IMG/VR virus record: IMGVR_UViG_638341087_000007
DNA from: a virus
Taxonomy: Duplodnaviria > Heunggongvirae > Uroviricota > Caudoviricetes
DNA length: 36,906 bases
Reading direction: 5' to 3' (one strand)
A program made the translations under genes and the position numbers. Below, piece by piece: positions 10,933 through 36,804 of the stretch (positions are counted from its first letter, which is position 1; the number at the start of each line of letters is the position of its first letter). The notes under the pieces were generated by a model. That model was not told where the DNA came from. It searched no databases and was given only the letters and a program-made list of their open reading frames with translations.

Positions 10933-11121
10933 TCAGGCTGCCTGAGCTGTTGATTTCAGCCCCAACTTCACGGCGATTTCATGGGATTTACCGTAACGGG
11001 CTTTGGTCTGCCCATTGAGAACGCGGTATACCTCATTGCGGTTGTAGCCGTTTTCTTCTGCCCAGCGGGTGAAAGTGATCCCGCGCTGGCGGAAGAGAGC
11101 TTTGACTTGTTCTGCAGTCAT
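10933..11121 (-). CDS. ner: Ner-like DNA-binding protein (Cro-like early regulator)
   Basis: 62 aa; HTH resembling the Ner/Nlp family; AAGGAGA RBS; divergent from the repressor gene. Confidence 0.65.
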   Translation of the reverse strand: MTAEQVKALFRQRGITFTRWAEENGYNRNEVYRVLNGQTKARYGKSHEIAVKLGLKSTAQAA

Positions 11122-11221
11122 CGTTGTCTCCTTTGTTGATGCAATGATGTTTGCCTTATGTGTGATAGATTATGGTGCAGATTATCTCACCAGTCAACTT
11201 AAAGAGTGCAGAAAAACTCAC
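11122..11221. promoter_or_regulatory. repressor/ner intergenic operator-promoter region
   Basis: 100-bp AT-rich divergent intergenic region with direct AGATTAT repeats and the element GTGAGATAAT on the minus strand. Confidence 0.5.
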
Positions 11222-11560
11222 ATGATCGGGTTACGTATTAAAGAAGAAAGAGAGCGTCTATCTCTTACACAGCAAGGGTTGGCTGATGCTATAGGTGTGG
11301 CAAAGAGAACTTTCATTGATTGGGAAAAAGATCGCACTTCTCCTACTGCAGTGCAGTTATCTGCACTATCAGAAATCGGTGTAGATATTTTGTATGTAGT
11401 TACTGGGGTGCGGAGTCAGCCTGTTGTTGCACCTTATGTGTCACAAGAAAAGAAAGAGTTAATGGATGCATTCGACGAAATGAGCCCCGAACAACGGAGG
11501 GCAATTCTTGAGGTCGGCAAAGTCTTCATTCAACCCAAACCAAGCAAACTCGCAGGCTGA
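11222..11560 (+). CDS. XRE-family HTH repressor (putative immunity repressor)
   Basis: Starts MIGLRIKEERERLSLTQQGLADAIGV, an XRE-type HTH; the 11069 start in the track would overlap ner. Confidence 0.6.
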   Translation: MIGLRIKEERERLSLTQQGLADAIGVAKRTFIDWEKDRTSPTAVQLSALSEIGVDILYVVTGVRSQPVVAPYVSQEKKELMDAFDEMSPEQRRAILEVGKVFIQPKPSKLAG

Positions 11561-11645: not shown

Positions 11646-11677
11646 ACCGGAAAGCATTGTGCTTTCCGGTTTTGTTC
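11646..11677 (+). terminator. rho-independent terminator downstream of the repressor gene
   Basis: Perfect 10-bp stem ACCGGAAAGC/GCTTTCCGGT, 5-nt loop, followed by TTTGTTC. Confidence 0.55.
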
Positions 11678-12440
11678 AGAAGTTGCAGATTACCAGTTCA
11701 CGGCGTGGCGTGGGTTTCCCCGCCAGACTGTAGTTGATATTCACCGTCTGTATGTTCAGTTCAGTGAACACCCGACGCATCTGCGGAATGTCATTCACCG
11801 AGATAATCATCTTTCCTCTGATGCACCGTGCCAGTTCTGCGAGTAGTGTGTAGTTCTCTTCAGGAAAATCCACACCATAGCCTTCCGTCCCCAGATAGGG
11901 CGGATCACAGTAGAACAGCGTGTGCGGACGGTCATAACGCTTAATGCACTGGTGCCAGTCCATGTGTTCTATCACCGTTCTGGAAAGCCGCAGGTGTGCC
12001 GCTGACAGTTCTTCTTCAATCCGTAGCAGGTTGAAGCGTGGCGGGGAGGTGGTGGAGGTGCCGAAGCTGTGCTCTGCCACCTTGCCCCCAAACGCCTGCT
12101 TCTGGAGGTAGTAGAACCGTGCCGCACGCTGGATATCCGTCAGTGTTTCTTCCGGGGTGATCTGCAGCCATTTGTAGATCTGCCGGCTAACCAGCGCCCA
12201 TTTGAATTGGCGGACAAATTCTTCCAGATGATGCTTTACTACCCGATACAGATTTACCAGTTCACCGTTGATATCGTTAATGACTTCGATCTTGCTGGGA
12301 GTCTTGAGAAAATAAAGTGCTGCTGCGCCGCAGAATGGCTCCACATAGCAGGTATGGAGTGGGAACTGAGGCAGAATGTGTTTGGCCAGACGACGTTTTC
12401 CCCCAATCCAGGGGACGATGGGTAAAGATTGTTCTTTCAT
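11676..12440 (-). CDS. Dam-like DNA N6-adenine methyltransferase (orphan)
   Basis: N-terminal PIVPWIGGKRR AdoMet-binding motif and DPPY catalytic motif; the track start at 12521 is a GTG, first ATG is at 12440. Confidence 0.85.
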   Translation of the reverse strand: MKEQSLPIVPWIGGKRRLAKHILPQFPLHTCYVEPFCGAAALYFLKTPSKIEVINDINGELVNLYRVVKHHLEEFVRQFKWALVSRQIYKWLQITPEETLTDIQRAARFYYLQKQAFGGKVAEHSFGTSTTSPPRFNLLRIEEELSAAHLRLSRTVIEHMDWHQCIKRYDRPHTLFYCDPPYLGTEGYGVDFPEENYTLLAELARCIRGKMIISVNDIPQMRRVFTELNIQTVNINYSLAGKPTPRRELVICNF

Positions 12441-12590
12441 TATCTGTAAGCCTTTTTCATTAGATGAAAATGCGATAGGCTTCCCTTGTTCTCGAGAACG
12501 GAAGAGCCTCGGTTGACTCACAGCTCATACCTGTAAGTTGATGACTCGCCTTGTGTTCGCTGCACAAGGTGAGTCGCTCTTTTCATGTTA
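12395..12590. repeat. direct repeat copy A (dam 5' end, leader and hairpin)
   Basis: About 190 bp, by-eye roughly 70% identical to 13029-13222; hairpin at an equivalent position. Confidence 0.6.
12543..12585 (+). terminator. hairpin plus T-tract (terminator-like RNA element) in repeat A
   Basis: 13-bp stem GACTCGCCTTGTG/CACAAGGTGAGTC (one G-U pair on the plus-strand transcript), 7-nt loop, followed by CTCTTTTC. Confidence 0.45.
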
Positions 12591-12634
12591 TTTGCATATT
12601 TCATGGGCGACAATTAAAGGGAGTTACTAATACC

Positions 12635-13015
12635 ATGGCCCCAAAAAATATTGAGCGGTTTAATGAAATAGTTGGTGAGATATTTGGGAGACTCTACGAA
12701 TCTTTCCCCGTCAAAATTGATATAAAGGCAGTTGATATCGTTAGACAGAATGAACTTACTTTTTTTCTTGATACCGTAGACTGGCTTAAAAACAGTGGCT
12801 ATTTAATCGGGGCGCGTAGTTCTGGGGGGATCCACAACGCAGTGCTAACGGCTAAAGGTCTTGAGGTATTAAACGCTACGCCTGGAAGTCTGGAAAAACC
12901 GTTGGGGGCCAGAATATCTGACTCTATAAAAATTGAAGGGAAAGAAGCGTTGCGATCACTGGTTAGCCAGACTCTAGGAATAGGTCTGCAATATATGTCT
13001 CGTGGTCTTATGTAA
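12635..13015 (+). CDS. small protein X1 (126 aa), predicted winged-helix-like; paralogue of 13479..13883
   Basis: Shares with X2 the pattern G-x-IF-x-RL ... F-x-DT-x-x-WL ... VLT-x-K-x-L-x-x-LNA-x-P; AT-rich codon usage compared with flanking phage genes. Confidence 0.6.
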   Translation: MAPKNIERFNEIVGEIFGRLYESFPVKIDIKAVDIVRQNELTFFLDTVDWLKNSGYLIGARSSGGIHNAVLTAKGLEVLNATPGSLEKPLGARISDSIKIEGKEALRSLVSQTLGIGLQYMSRGLM

Positions 13016-13075
13016 TATCGCAAGGCAGCGTTTGCCACCAATCCATGGAACGATGGGTAATGTCTGCGTTTTCAT
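12974..13075 (-). pseudogene. dam 5' fragment (second, truncated copy)
   Basis: Minus-strand translation MKTQTLPIVPWIGGKRCL... matches Dam N-terminus MKEQSLPIVPWIGGKRRL...; frame ends after 33 codons and overlaps the X1 3' end. Confidence 0.6.
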
Positions 13076-13222
13076 AATCTGTAAACATTTTACAATTATT
13101 AAAAATATGGCAGGCTAGTCTGGTCTCACGAGACTGACTGAACCTCGGTCGGCTCACAGTGCATTCCTGTGGGACGATGGCCAGCCCGGCTTTCGGGTGC
13201 CGGGCTGGTCGTTCTTTCATGA
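13029..13222. repeat. direct repeat copy B (dam' 5' end, leader and hairpin)
   Basis: Alignable with 12395-12590. Confidence 0.6.
13181..13221 (+). terminator. hairpin plus T-tract (terminator-like) in repeat B
   Basis: 10-bp stem CCAGCCCGGC/GCCGGGCTGG, 8-nt loop, followed by TCGTTCTTTC; same relative position as the hairpin in repeat A but different stem sequence. Confidence 0.5.
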
Positions 13223-13264
13223 TGCGGCAGGGATAGTGGGATTTCTGTTAATGCGGTTTAGGGA

Positions 13265-13480
13265 TTATCCGGGGTGATTTTCTGACCTTATCTGGTCCAG
13301 GGCGTAAGTGAGCCCTTCTGCAAAAACAGAAGTATCAAACTGCTTTTGTATTTCCTGAAAATGAACAGTGGCACGACAGATACTCAGTTCTCCGCGATGT
13401 AACCGGATAATATCTTCCAGAACATTGTTCACTGCTTCAGCACGGCGCTGATGTTCTGTTAACGTTAATCGGGGATTCAT
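13265..13480 (-). CDS. hypothetical small protein (71 aa), uncertain
   Basis: Strong RBS (AAGGAG, 6 nt spacing) but its start codon overlaps the X2 start codon divergently by 2 nt. Confidence 0.3.
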   Translation of the reverse strand: MNPRLTLTEHQRRAEAVNNVLEDIIRLHRGELSICRATVHFQEIQKQFDTSVFAEGLTYALDQIRSENHPG

Positions 13481-13883
13481 GATGCACTCCTTAAATGATG
13501 ATTTTTATGTACTCACCGGCAAAATATTCTGCCGATTACTGAACACGCATCCGGTACCTCAGGTTTTGATTTATTCTGGTTTTTTCGATATCCCGGACCA
13601 GGTTGATCACGACCAGAAAAAGTGCCGGTATTTTATTGATACGCTGATATGGCTTCGGGATAACAGCTATATTCGTTACTCTCAGTTGCTGGCTGTGGGA
13701 GCGGCTGATGTCGTCCTCACGGAAAAAACGCTCTGTCTGCTCAATGCCATGCCGACCTTTCTGCAGCCCCGGCCCGTGCCATTTAAAGAGTCGCTTCTGG
13801 ATGCAGTAAAAACCGGTGAAAATGCAGTCATCGCTGAATGCGTATCCCGGATTATGCGTTACGTGTTTAATGAACGTAAGTGA
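13479..13883 (+). CDS. small protein X2 (134 aa), paralogue of X1
   Basis: Same conserved pattern as X1; GGGGA RBS; 3' end overlaps the convergent NTPase gene by 25 nt. Confidence 0.6.
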   Translation: MMHSLNDDFYVLTGKIFCRLLNTHPVPQVLIYSGFFDIPDQVDHDQKKCRYFIDTLIWLRDNSYIRYSQLLAVGAADVVLTEKTLCLLNAMPTFLQPRPVPFKESLLDAVKTGENAVIAECVSRIMRYVFNERK

Positions 13884-14662: not shown

Positions 14663-14683
14663 TCTTAACGCGCTTTAAAATCC
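14663..14683 (+). promoter_or_regulatory. candidate late promoter element upstream of the lysis operon
   Basis: TCTTAACGCGCTTTAAAATCC, one of three similar elements upstream of late operons. Confidence 0.4.
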
Positions 14684-14732
14684 TTCGCGCCCTGTATTTG
14701 TGATGCTGTCTCCACCAGACAAGGAGACACAC

Positions 14733-34176: not shown

Positions 34177-35270
34177 CAGAACCCGATTTTATTGAACGCG
34201 ATGCCGATAAAATCACGGCAGAAATGATTGCGAAGTATGAAGAGGATACCGGAAAAACGCTGTACCCGGCACAGGCTGAACGTCTGCTGATTGACCTGTG
34301 GGCCTATCGCGAAATGCTGGTCAGGGTGGCAGTACAGGAGGCGGCGAAGCAGAATCTGGTCGCTTTTTCCCGTGAGCCGATGATTGATTACCTCGGTGAA
34401 CTGGTCGGTGTATACCGCCTTGCTGCGCAGCCTGCCACCACCACACTTCAGTTCTCTGTGGATGAGGCACTGGCCATTGATGTGCTGATCCCGGCAGGCA
34501 CCCGCGTCAGCGCTTCCGACAGTATTATTTTTGCCACCGATACAGATGTGGTGCTGAAGGCCGGATTGCTGCTGGTCAATGTCACGGCCACCTGTACCGA
34601 GCCGGGTACCGCTGGCAACGGCTGGCAACCGGCGCAGGTCAGTCAGTTACTCGATGAGATTGATAACATTGACCTGCTGGTGACCAATCTGACGGCCAGC
34701 TCTGGCGGTTCAGAGCAGGAAGACGATGACCGGCTCCGGGAGCGTATCAGGCTGGCCCCGGAGTCATTCACCAATGCCGGAAGCCGTGGTGCATACCGTT
34801 TTCATGCTATGGGGGCGCATCCCGGCATTGTCGACGTTGCTGTTCTTTCTCCCGCTCCCGGCACTGTCGAGCTGTATCCGCTGCTCAGCACTGGTCTGCC
34901 GGACAGCAGTATCCTCACTCTGGTAGAGAGTTTCTGTTCTGACGAAAAAGTCAGACCACTCACTGATACCGTGCGGGCTAAAACACCTGTTCAGGTGGAT
35001 TACACCATTGAAGCCAGGATTACGATCTATCGTGATCAGGATGCAAGGTTGGTAAAGGACAACGCTAACAGCGCCATACAGAACTGGGTGGCATCCCGTA
35101 CCGCCACGCTGGGGCGCGATATTGTTCCCAGCCAGATTATCAGCGTGTTGTCCGTTTCCGGGGTGTACCAGGTCGAACTGGTGACACCGGCACTGAGGGT
35201 GGTGGCAGAAAACGAATGGGCAAACTGTACGGCGATCACTCTTAACATGACCGGGGTGTCCGATGGCTGA
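34167..35270 (+). CDS. baseplate J-like protein (Mu gp47-like)
   Basis: 367 aa, overlapping start. Confidence 0.7.
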   Translation: MALTEPDFIERDADKITAEMIAKYEEDTGKTLYPAQAERLLIDLWAYREMLVRVAVQEAAKQNLVAFSREPMIDYLGELVGVYRLAAQPATTTLQFSVDEALAIDVLIPAGTRVSASDSIIFATDTDVVLKAGLLLVNVTATCTEPGTAGNGWQPAQVSQLLDEIDNIDLLVTNLTASSGGSEQEDDDRLRERIRLAPESFTNAGSRGAYRFHAMGAHPGIVDVAVLSPAPGTVELYPLLSTGLPDSSILTLVESFCSDEKVRPLTDTVRAKTPVQVDYTIEARITIYRDQDARLVKDNANSAIQNWVASRTATLGRDIVPSQIISVLSVSGVYQVELVTPALRVVAENEWANCTAITLNMTGVSDG

Positions 35271-35841
35271 GGTGCTACAACTCCCGCCACCGCTTGAGGG
35301 TGATATCAGTCTCAGAACGCTGGGAAGACTGGCCGGACGGCTGGATAACATCGACCTGAGCGTACTGATGGTCGGTCTCGTCGATATTGTCGACAGTTCC
35401 GCGCTGCCATGGCTTGGCGAGCAGTTCTCGCTGTTCGGCGATGGCTGGGAACTGGCGGAATCGGACGATGTACGCCGCATGCTTATCAAATCCGCTATCG
35501 AGCTACACCGCTATAAAGGAACACCGTGGTCAATCCGGGAAATTATCCGCCGTTTTGGCTTCGGCGAAGTGGATCTGATTGAAGGTACGGGGCAGATTGG
35601 CTATGACGGCAGACACACGTACAACGGGCTTTTCGTCCATGGTGATGCACAAGCCTGGGCAGTCTATCGCGTCATCCTTCAACAACCCATCACTAACGAT
35701 CAGGCGGCGCTGTTACGTCAGACGCTTGCTGCCTTTGCTCCGGCTCGCTGTCATCTGGCAAGTCTGGAATATCAGTCTGTCGCCATTCGATACAACAGTA
35801 CTACCCGTTATGACGGTAGTTACAACCACGGGAGCAGTTAA
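35263..35841 (+). CDS. tail protein (P2 gpI / Mu gp48-like)
   Basis: 192 aa, immediately upstream of the tail fibre gene. Confidence 0.6.
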   Translation: MAEVLQLPPPLEGDISLRTLGRLAGRLDNIDLSVLMVGLVDIVDSSALPWLGEQFSLFGDGWELAESDDVRRMLIKSAIELHRYKGTPWSIREIIRRFGFGEVDLIEGTGQIGYDGRHTYNGLFVHGDAQAWAVYRVILQQPITNDQAALLRQTLAAFAPARCHLASLEYQSVAIRYNSTTRYDGSYNHGSS

Positions 35842-35843
35842 TT

Positions 35844-36804
35844 ATGGCAAATCTACCCGAAACCCCGCAGTGGGAAAGCGGCATATACCAGATTGAGGTC
35901 TCTGACCCCGTTCTGGGCGGACCTGACGGAATTTCTAACCGCCAGGCTAAACAACTGGCCAGCCGAACGTCATACCTCAAACAGAAGGTCGAAAAAAGCG
36001 GAACAGACCTGGCTGCACATATCGCGGCAGTTGACCCGCATACCCAGTACGCGACGAAAGCCAGTCCGACATTCACCGGCACACCAACAGCACCTACACC
36101 TGCAAATGGTGATAACAGCAAAAAGCTGGCGACGACGGAGTTTGTGGCCAAAGCACTTGCGGCACTTGCAGGCAGCGCCCCTGAGACACTGGATACGCTT
36201 AAAGAGCTGGCTGACGCTCTCGGTAATGATCCAAACTTTGCGACTACGGTACTGAACAAGCTGGCGGAAAAGCTGGCTAAAGACCAGAACGGCGCAGATA
36301 TTCCTGAGCCTGCGCTGTTTGTCAAAAACCTTGGTTTGGGGGAAGGCTCNGCGCTGCCCGTTGGTGTGCCTGTTCCGTGGCCCTCAGCCACACCNCCAAC
36401 NGGNTGGCTGAAATGTAACGGTGCAGCATTTTCTTCTGAAATGTANCCCAAACTGGCAAAAGCTTACCCCACCAATAAATTACCGGATTTACGGGGTGAA
36501 TTTATTCGTGGCTGGGATGANGGGCGGGGAATTGATTAATAGACGCAACCTACTGTCTGCACAGTCTGACACTATTCAGAATATAGTTGGCACTTTTGGA
36601 CGAACTCAGCTTTTTAAAGATGCTTTAAATTCAGGGCCATTTAGTCAAACTGACTCTATATTATCAGTAGGCTTGCAACCAACTGAGAATATTGAAGGAT
36701 ATGGCGCCTCTGTATGGACATTCGACGCCTCTCGCTCAGTTCGCACAGCATCTGAAACACGTCCTCGTAACATTGCGTTTAATTACATCGTAAGGGCGGC
36801 ATAG
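35844..36804 (+). CDS. tail fibre protein, reading frame broken near 36521-36540 (ambiguous bases)
   Basis: Conserved fibre N-terminus (ASPTFTGTPTAPTPANGDNSKKLATTEFV), crossover motif PVPWPSAT..GWLKCNGA, then C-terminal fibre motifs (LLSAQSDTIQNIVGTF, ETRPRNIAFNYIVRAA) in the next frame; six N bases in 36350-36521. Confidence 0.7.
36322..36420 (+). repeat. tail-fibre crossover-region repeat, copy 1
   Basis: About 100 bp, near-identical to 36806-36906; encodes LGEGxALPVGVPVPWPSAT..GWLKCNGA. Confidence 0.75.

Follow-up and report, generated by a model that had tools for sequence, protein, structure and literature searches.

A repeated, structured RNA element upstream of dam

The DNA stretch analysed here (the window; 36,906 nt, IMG/VR record IMGVR_UViG_638341087_000007) comprises nearly the whole of a BcepMu-like (Bcepmuvirus) transposable prophage of Escherichia coli. 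It harbours on the minus strand a dam gene for an adenine DNA methyltransferase, upstream of which lie a small gene in the opposite orientation, named X1, and then the 5' end of a second, truncated dam reading frame. The two dam 5' ends and their upstream regions form a direct repeat, which is the subject of this work. We consider it probable that the two repeat units represent copies of one conserved, gene-like element, which encodes a structured RNA of ~105-125 nt on the plus strand, opposite dam, that this RNA takes part in antisense gating of dam, and that one of the copies was imported with a module.

BLASTN aligned positions 12394-12534 with 13028-13170 on the same strand (102 identities in 142 positions, 72%, one gap, E 2e-17), which rules out a chance repeat, and an independent repeat search of the window revealed 72% identity over 97 nt. 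The similar part comprises 15-19 codons at the 5' end of dam and extends ~95 nt beyond the start codon into the upstream region. Thus, the direct repeat proposed in the initial annotation exists and is not confined to the ~50 bp encoding the Dam N-terminus. Past the aligned part both copies contain perfect hairpins of unrelated sequence (12543-12575, GACTCGCCTTGTG...CACAAGGTGAGTC, and 13179-13210, GGCCAGCCCGGC...GCCGGGCTGGTC); a T-rich run comes directly after each hairpin.

A covariance model built from relatives matched both copies at full length (Table 1) and found no third copy in the window. The consensus architecture consists of a 5' hairpin (P0) and a three-way junction, in which helix P1 closes around hairpins P2 and P3. 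P2 has the form CUCACAG - loop - CUGUGGG. P3 is the long GC-rich hairpin mentioned above; its apical sequence GGUGUUnnnGCACC is conserved, and the stretch 3' of it starts with a conserved GC(Y)(Y). In copy 1, P3 contains one G.U pair whose minus-strand counterpart would be an A.C mismatch. The minimum free energy (MFE) fold of copy 1 (12488-12590) gave exactly the consensus structure (-42.3 kcal/mol, z -4.6). The T-rich run, described as a T-tract in the initial annotation, turned out to be the 3' strand of P1 (GCUCUUUUC in the window; GCUUCCUCU, GCCCUGUCU or GCACCGUCU in relatives), while the 5' strand is a purine segment ~70 nt upstream of it (GGAAGAGC, GGGGAAGC, CAGGGC, ACGGUGC). Of the plus-strand terminator or riboregulator suggested before, the conserved plus-strand RNA structure was therefore supported but the stand-alone terminator was not, since the hairpin is helix P3 of a three-way-junction RNA.

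That the structure is retained while the sequence changes is supported by ~125 distinct relatives, which establish the covariation; the two window copies alone could not do so. For 48 distinct sequences aligned with MAFFT without structural information, the RNAalifold consensus comprised the four helices. In this alignment 92% of the paired cells were able to pair, in comparison to 38-52% when the partners were slid by 1-3 columns; compensatory double changes were present in 24 of 29 pairs, and the covariation score was 0.57 versus 0.24 after shuffling (not reached in any of 500 shuffles). P1 shows compensatory changes in six of its eight pairs, and its duplex energies average -10.7 kcal/mol with the own partner strand versus -5.6 kcal/mol across sequences. 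In a second set of 77 distinct IMG/VR sequences, whose alignment had been fitted to the model and whose P2 was predetermined by the search pattern, 95% of the cells were paired and 22 of 29 pairs had double changes. G.U pairs outnumber A.C combinations in both sets (176:24 in the MAFFT alignment and 307:22 in the IMG/VR set), which favours the plus strand, opposite dam, as the structured strand. In line with this strand assignment, in 61 of 65 sequences the plus strand gave the better fold of the region of P2 and P3 (hairpins B and C).

The loop of P0 is self-complementary in 78 of 94 members with a four-nt loop (e.g. TCGA, CGCG, GTAC, GATC, GCGC), where ~6 would be expected, and the sequence of the palindrome varies between phages. 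At the other end of the element, 50 of 65 members have at least five T within an 8-nt window, and the first 8-9 nt after P3 are paired in P1. This U-rich end together with P3/P1 probably terminates the predicted RNA; in copy 1 its 3' end likely corresponds to 12576-12592.

The element was not assigned to a known RNA family. The whole window contains no Rfam 15 match at the gathering threshold, and a search of 12300-13500 down to E<=10 gave nothing relevant. In a set of 12 diverse relatives, the only overlaps with the element were sub-threshold ones on the same strand (symR with 29.8 bits at a cut-off of 61, ctRNA_pGA1 with 29.5 bits at a cut-off of 45), and these look generic.

Occurrence of the element and its linkage to dam

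The distribution was analysed in two samples. The first consisted of 80 loci of close Dam relatives, one genome per species, and revealed conservation of the dam upstream region in Gamma-, Beta- and Deltaproteobacteria. The covariance model matched 70 of the loci, with one copy in each; of the ten loci without a match, two are truncated at the end of a contig and a third is disrupted by an insertion. All matches are located on the strand opposite to dam, immediately upstream of dam or of a Com-like zinc-finger gene which precedes it. In Pantoea stewartii (L009), ~90 nt upstream of dam, the element is cut after the hexamer CAGGCTA by unrelated sequence, probably an insertion and perhaps a transposase-like one.

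For the second sample, IMG/VR was scanned with a pattern for a part of the RNA, and 79 contigs with full model matches were obtained. An adjacent divergent Dam gene is present in 72-73 of them; three matches are at contig edges, two (L142 and L119) represent the same variant, and two are other cases. In L142 (667-1825) the element is followed by a Com-like gene and a gene for a 318-amino-acid methyltransferase of a different family with a DPPY motif, without Dam. The element may thus travel with com/modification modules in general.

The element separates Rz from the methylase gene in phages phiE125 and KS9, and tail gene D from the methylase gene in VP882 and phiHAP-1; in Pseudomonas phage B3 it precedes the annotated Com and Dam genes and overlaps the tiny ORF45/46. 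A Com-like zinc-finger open reading frame (ORF) lies between the RNA element and dam in L028, L031, L032, L045, L053, L058, L059, L062, L074, L075, L078 and L084, and also in phage B3 (L087). The com-dam operons of the relatives are analogous to com-mom of phage Mu, while the window and its enterobacterial relatives have no com. One conserved RNA element thus seems to be tied to one Dam clade in transposable phages, lambda-like Burkholderia phages and telomere phages, and laboratory model phages (B3, VP882 and phiE125) are among its carriers.

The promoter-like motif, the dam leader and possible functions

On the plus strand, ~7 nt upstream of P0, a position profile of 134 distinct relatives revealed an extended -10 motif, TGnTAnnnT, with T at -15 in 63%, G at -14 in 89%, T at -12 in 92%, A at -11 in 98% and T at -7 in 99% of the sequences. 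The middle positions vary (TAGGCT, TAGAAT, TAAACT, TACGCT, TATGAT and others), and a purine is present 7 nt downstream in 69%. We rejected the possibility that the hexamer extends the 5' hairpin as a GGCU/AGCC helix because variants such as TAGAAT, TAAACT and TACGCT are not compensated in the hairpin, and for this reason it is read as the -10 element of a promoter-like sequence that would belong to the RNA and is directed opposite to dam. A weak -35 region overlaps the ribosome-binding site and the start codon of dam. For the lineage of copy 2, a promoter scan detected a better sigma-70-like match slightly further upstream (Table 1); this alternative promoter candidate includes the start codon of the dam stub, and an RNA transcribed from it would be longer at the 5' end. 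Methylation sites of Dam (GATC) are present within 40 nt of the promoter in only ~5 of 74 sequences, as counted by eye.

The start of the RNA gene is 17-36 nt away from the start codon of dam or com, which leaves no room for a dam promoter between them, and in many phages dam is located inside the late operon, the preceding gene ending 1-20 nt from the 3' end of the RNA. Therefore, the dam mRNA should carry the full complement of the RNA as a leader or intergenic region, and thus the RNA would be the cis-antisense partner of the (com-)dam leader. The ribosome-binding region of dam or com (AAGGCUUACAG in E. coli; GAGGCUUGCAG, GGAGGCUCACAUG, AAGGCAAUUCA and GAGCCUACG elsewhere) resembles, lineage by lineage, the junction and the 5' arm of P2 (7.17 of 12 positions for the own locus versus 6.66 for other loci; reached in 0 of 2000 permutations). 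This means that the complement of the arm in the sense mRNA is an anti-ribosome-binding-site (anti-RBS) segment. Ensemble folding of 72 leaders yielded a mean probability of 0.55 for pairing between the anti-RBS segment and the ribosome-binding side, versus 0.15 in shuffled and 0.25 in swapped sequences (p ~1e-8 to 5e-10 against shuffled or family-swapped controls). Moreover, the dam-sense RNA of 12454-12470 and the equivalents in relatives from enterobacteria and betaproteobacteria contain a decoy, AAUGAAAA, just upstream of the true start (AUAAUGAAAG). In those lineages only, pairing of either of them with AUUUUCAU is a possible second mask of the start codon.

Based on these observations we suggest the following model. 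The promoter with the extended -10 element, which overlaps the ribosome-binding region of dam, would be constitutively active, and the RNA, together with the self-masking leader, would keep Dam synthesis off or gated until late transcription. The module would thus be a sense/antisense riboregulator of Dam or Com-Dam and functionally analogous to the multilayer control that Mu exerts over com-mom. Repression seems to us the likelier sign of the regulation than activation, but this is a guess.

Several points weigh against this model. The palindromic loop of P0 cannot be explained by intramolecular folding of an RNA; it hints at dimerisation, at a symmetric DNA site or at a requirement that both transcripts form the same hairpin. 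In many members, the six nt that follow the hexamer pair with the first part of the P1 5' strand, and therefore a transcription start 7 nt downstream of the hexamer fits poorly, making the 5' end or the promoter uncertain. This pairing gave a weak signal without clear strand bias (-7.2 kcal/mol for own versus -5.5 kcal/mol for cross pairs), and an attenuator-like switch at this site is a weakly supported candidate. When trans pairing between the RNA and the ribosome-binding region was calculated, there was no signal (-14.8 versus -14.7 kcal/mol) in a crude test with imperfect start-codon calls. Further, masking is an ensemble tendency and not robust for each sequence, the MFE folds of single sequences being unstable, and in copy 1, the functional copy of the window, a local hairpin is predicted to win over masking (P 0.07).

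Other functions have to be considered. It is rather unlikely that the functional molecule is only the 5' leader of dam in the sense orientation (a translational switch, a target of Com or a riboswitch), of which the plus-strand structure would be the mirror image. This would fit the position of the element, which is always immediately upstream of dam or com, the lineage-specific complementarity of the ribosome-binding region and the anti-RBS segment, and the precedent of the Mu mom leader hairpin opened by Com (PMC3378877). However, the excess of G.U over A.C described above, the C.A mismatches that half of the sequences would have on the dam strand, the better folding of the plus strand in nearly all sequences and the location of TGnTAnnnT on the plus strand argue for a plus-strand RNA; in addition, the element is kept in lineages without com, and neither strand matches a riboswitch or any other Rfam family. 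An unlikely interpretation, too, is that the hairpins are plain intrinsic terminators or insulators against read-through into the late and lysis genes, with the rest being the promoter-leader region of dam. As in Rho-independent terminators, P3 is a GC-rich hairpin of 12-15 bp followed by a U- and pyrimidine-rich stretch, which is found family-wide; a scan flagged 12542-12576 as terminator-like, and in E. coli prophages with the minimal arrangement the element is closely followed by the holin operon. Terminators, however, do not need the conserved apical GGUGUUnnnGCACC, and the stretch after P3 is paired, with covariation, to the segment ~70 nt upstream. Three further helices and the junction sequences are conserved over three proteobacterial classes, the conserved -10 motif is located ~100 nt upstream on the same strand, and in most phages the element faces against both neighbouring genes. 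That the predicted RNA terminates here is nevertheless likely, and the terminator reading is thus a part of the account of a plus-strand RNA gene and not an alternative to it.

Very unlikely is a late-operon leader of the lambda PR'/6S RNA type in enterobacterial BcepMu-like phages, which would serve antitermination into the holin and structural genes. Although the RNA points at a holin gene ~100 nt downstream in L004, L005 and L017, and TAnnnT could serve as a sigma-dependent pause element, co-orientation with the late operon is found only in some enterobacterial prophages, unlike in the lambda late leader with its 6S RNA and tR'. In phiE125, KS9, VP882, phiHAP-1 and B3, as in most GC-rich prophages, the 3' end of the RNA is 1-20 nt away from the end of a gene encoded on the dam strand, so that antitermination would have no target downstream; moreover, a separate conserved promoter-like motif precedes the holin gene, and in the window cargo genes on both strands lie between the RNA and the holin gene. 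We also give very little credence to a role at the DNA level, in which the palindrome would serve a dimeric protein as operator, form a cruciform or act as the hot spot of the recombination behind the duplication. The self-complementary loops of P0 and the mosaic junction in this region of the window would be in agreement with it, whereas the palindrome differs in sequence between phages, the module is not accompanied by a candidate for the cognate protein, the other helices lack a palindrome and have many G.U pairs, and the illegitimate junction (13016-13019) is located away from the palindrome. Coding capacity is a most improbable explanation: minus-strand ORFs exist in both copies (12518-12613 and 13008-13220), and in B3 (ORF45/46) and VP882 the annotation places tiny ORFs on the element, but the two ORFs of the window differ in frame, length and sequence, and the substitutions track base-pair covariation and not codon structure. 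Last, the RNA could be a counterpart of Com, its P2 5' arm mimicking the ribosome-binding region, competing with it for the anti-RBS segment and turning Dam translation on, or the three-way-junction RNA, dimerised through P0, could bind Dam or another factor. We regard this as doubtful; if true, either would add a new principle to the regulation of DNA-modification modules, which hundreds of phages would share.

The proposed antisense riboregulator can be compared with known systems. In Mu, a divergent overlapping promoter upstream of com-mom, momP2, fires away from the modification operon, and mom translation is controlled by a leader RNA hairpin which is opened by Com (PMC3378877). As in Mu, the modification gene is located at the edge of or inside the late region, and in the relatives studied here it is often preceded by a Com gene (Com-like ORFs in L028, L031, L084, B3 and others). 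The differences are that the methylase here is of the Dam type, while Mu encodes Mom, and that Mu has only 94 nt between gin and com. A search of Mu 34300-36717 by cmsearch with filters off gave 4.9 bits at best, i.e. no homologue of the element upstream of Mu com, and homology to the Mu region was rejected. We are not aware of a structured product of momP2. Among the cis-encoded antisense small RNAs known from mobile elements are SymR/symE, Sok/hok, IS10 RNA-OUT, lambda OOP, P22 Sar and the plasmid ctRNAs. Like these, the RNA predicted here is short and structured, has a constitutive-looking promoter, lies opposite the 5' region of a gene which should not be expressed at the wrong time, and ends in a GC-rich hairpin with a U-rich tail; as in hok, the target mRNA seems to contain a long-range pairing that masks the ribosome-binding site. 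Unlike them, it does not belong to any of these families and has a three-way junction closed by the 3' tail and an unusual palindromic 5' hairpin; with the predicted start it would also leave the Shine-Dalgarno sequence and the start codon of dam uncovered.

In the literature on BcepMu-like and Mu-like phages, VP882, phiE125 and antisense RNAs of prophage Dam we found no description of the element. Thus, while cis-antisense riboregulators of phage genes are a known kind of system, the family with its tail-closed junction, palindromic P0 and ribosome-binding-site mimic appears to be new. Dam methylases are common in phages, and to our knowledge the timing of their expression is essentially unexplained outside Mu mom. 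For annotation, the element offers a new RNA gene where tiny ORFs are annotated now; for experiments, it offers a handle on the control of phage DNA methylation, with the promoter hexamer, the four helices and the ribosome-binding-site mimic as testable parts.

Origin of the two copies and the neighbouring genes

The 2.4-kb region around the repeat is 98-100% identical to six complete E. coli genomes, e.g. that of strain M-17, whereas the matches to phage PhiKM and to over 500 further E. coli genomes are split into two pieces that cover ~80% of the region. The double form is carried by the six genomes, and 516 of 556 matching records are in the 90-95% identity band; among the matches listed, all beyond those six consist of two pieces with ~80% of the query, i.e. 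have the single-copy form. As a reference for this common form we used the prophage of strain ABU 83972 (L002), to which the window is compared in Table 1.

Copy 2 is 96-97% identical to the single-copy allele, and this identity points to copy 2 and the dam stub as the resident allele. The DNA of the functional dam is ~88% identical to the resident allele of related prophages, and dam, copy 1 and X1 appear to represent an imported, diverged module. Tandem duplication in situ was rejected since the two copies are just 72% alike and the allele close to copy 2 is single in related prophages. Thus, of the origin proposed in the initial annotation, the footprint of recombination was retained and the duplication of a cassette at this site was not. 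According to our model, the diverged dam-RNA-X1 module would have replaced most of the resident dam, leaving 19 codons of the old gene together with its RNA element, and would have been joined by homologous exchange near the 3' end of dam and by an illegitimate junction at 13016-13019. The left recombination boundary is located at ~11690-11700, just past a plus-strand hairpin with a T-run (11646-11670). This hairpin is strongly terminator-like and lies between the repressor gene and the convergent 3' end of dam.

The initial annotation had also recognised a pseudogene copy of the dam 5' end, and a truncated stub is indeed present. It comprises 19 codons and not 17 because the homology to the resident allele stops at 13019; the minus-strand ORF 13075..12974 begins with MKTQTLPIVPWIGGKRC. 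The stub ends 4 nt past the stop codon of X1 (13013-13015). In comparison to the resident single-copy allele, its Shine-Dalgarno sequence is destroyed by substitutions at 13085 and 13087 (AAGGC to AAUGU), so the stub shows some decay. With respect to L002, copy 2 has one changed base in the palindromic loop of its 5' hairpin (13128) and a compensatory double change in the apical pair of P3 (13190 C/A with 13199 G/T, i.e. C-G / A-U). The odd dam pseudogene of the window would thus be explained as the scar of a module exchange which brought the cargo gene X1.

Table 1. Coordinates of the RNA element copies, genes and segments of the window
Feature	Position	Strand	Basis or remark
Copy 1 of the RNA element, full model match	12457..12584	+	cmsearch 94.9 bits, E 1e-25
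Copy 1, weak -35-like TTTTCA	12454-12459	+	predicted +1 near 12488
Copy 1, -10-like hexamer TAGGCT	12476..12481	+	TA...T core of the family motif; C instead of T at -15
Copy 1, P0, GTTCTCGAGAAC	12488..12499	+	perfect 12-nt palindrome including TCGA loop
Copy 1, P1 5' strand, GGAAGAGC	12500..12507	+	pairs with 12576-12584; RNAalifold and pair counts
Copy 1, P2 (hairpin B), TTGACTCACAG - loop - CTGTAAGTTGA	12513..12541	+	
Copy 1, P3 (hairpin C), GACTCGCCTTGTG/CACAAGGTGAGTC	12543..12575	+	
Copy 1, P1 3' strand, GCTCTTTTC (12576-12584), and U-rich continuation	12576..12592	+	
Copy 2 of the RNA element, putative resident allele	13092..13219	+	cmsearch 98.9 bits; 96-97% to ABU 83972 prophage
Copy 2, hexamer CAGGCT	13111-13116	+	
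Copy 2, P0	13123-13134 (long form 13117-13139)	+	
Copy 2, P1 5' strand	13135-13143	+	
Copy 2, P2	13151-13175	+	
Copy 2, P3	13179-13210	+	
Copy 2, P1 3' strand	13211-13219	+	
Copy 2, alternative sigma-70-like promoter (TTTTCA, 16 nt, TACAAT)	13069..13096	+	promoter scan, 9/12 matches
Functional dam, D12-class N6-adenine DNA methyltransferase, putatively imported allele	11676..12440	-	ORF list; RefSeq annotation of identical locus; Pfam PF02086, E 1e-27
dam translation-initiation region, sense RNA AAGGCUUACAG	12444..12454	-	start codon 12440-12438
Stub of putative resident dam, 19 codons, R17C	13019..13075	-	ORF and divergence comparison
X1, 126-amino-acid cargo gene, phrog_2266	12635..13015	+	PHROGs match
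134-amino-acid X1 paralogue, phrog_2266	13479..13883	+	resident accessory region between RNA and lysis genes
Early operon (ner, A, B)		-	ORF list and annotation
Repressor gene	11069-11560	+	
Holin/lysis and structural genes	from 14733	+	
Segment compared with L002	left of ~11690		practically identical
Segment compared with L002	11700-12534		4-18 differences per 50 nt
Segment compared with L002	12535-13018		no homology
Segment compared with L002	from ~13020		96-97% identical

The X1 protein and its 134-amino-acid paralogue share 28% identity (BLASTP, E 4e-12); their PHROGs matches have E values of 1e-35 and 8e-45, and no Pfam match was found for either of them. In E. coli, X1 is present only in the six genomes with the double arrangement. 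Among the X1 homologues no simple donor arrangement for the imported module could be reconstructed because in the Photorhabdus/Xenorhabdus-type prophages they are located on the opposite side of dam. The region between the RNA element and the holin gene is a variable accessory slot, in which the genes for X1, the 134-amino-acid protein, a 71-amino-acid protein (phrog_4490) and a 247-amino-acid protein (phrog_3787) were found; in other relatives it is empty or contains a gene for 188 amino acids.

Upstream of the holin gene, the motif TTAACGCGCTTTAAAATCC is kept in many relatives and has a single match in the window (14665-14730); it may be a late promoter or an activator site. The Shine-Dalgarno sequence of the holin gene (AAGGAGAC, 14720-14727) is able to pair with GTCTCC (14708-14713), which is a possible translational mask for holin. 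Finally, 16 CRISPR-like direct repeats (sub-threshold CRISPR-DR32) are present ~900 nt downstream of dam in a gammaproteobacterial metagenome-assembled genome (L081, 3399-4488).

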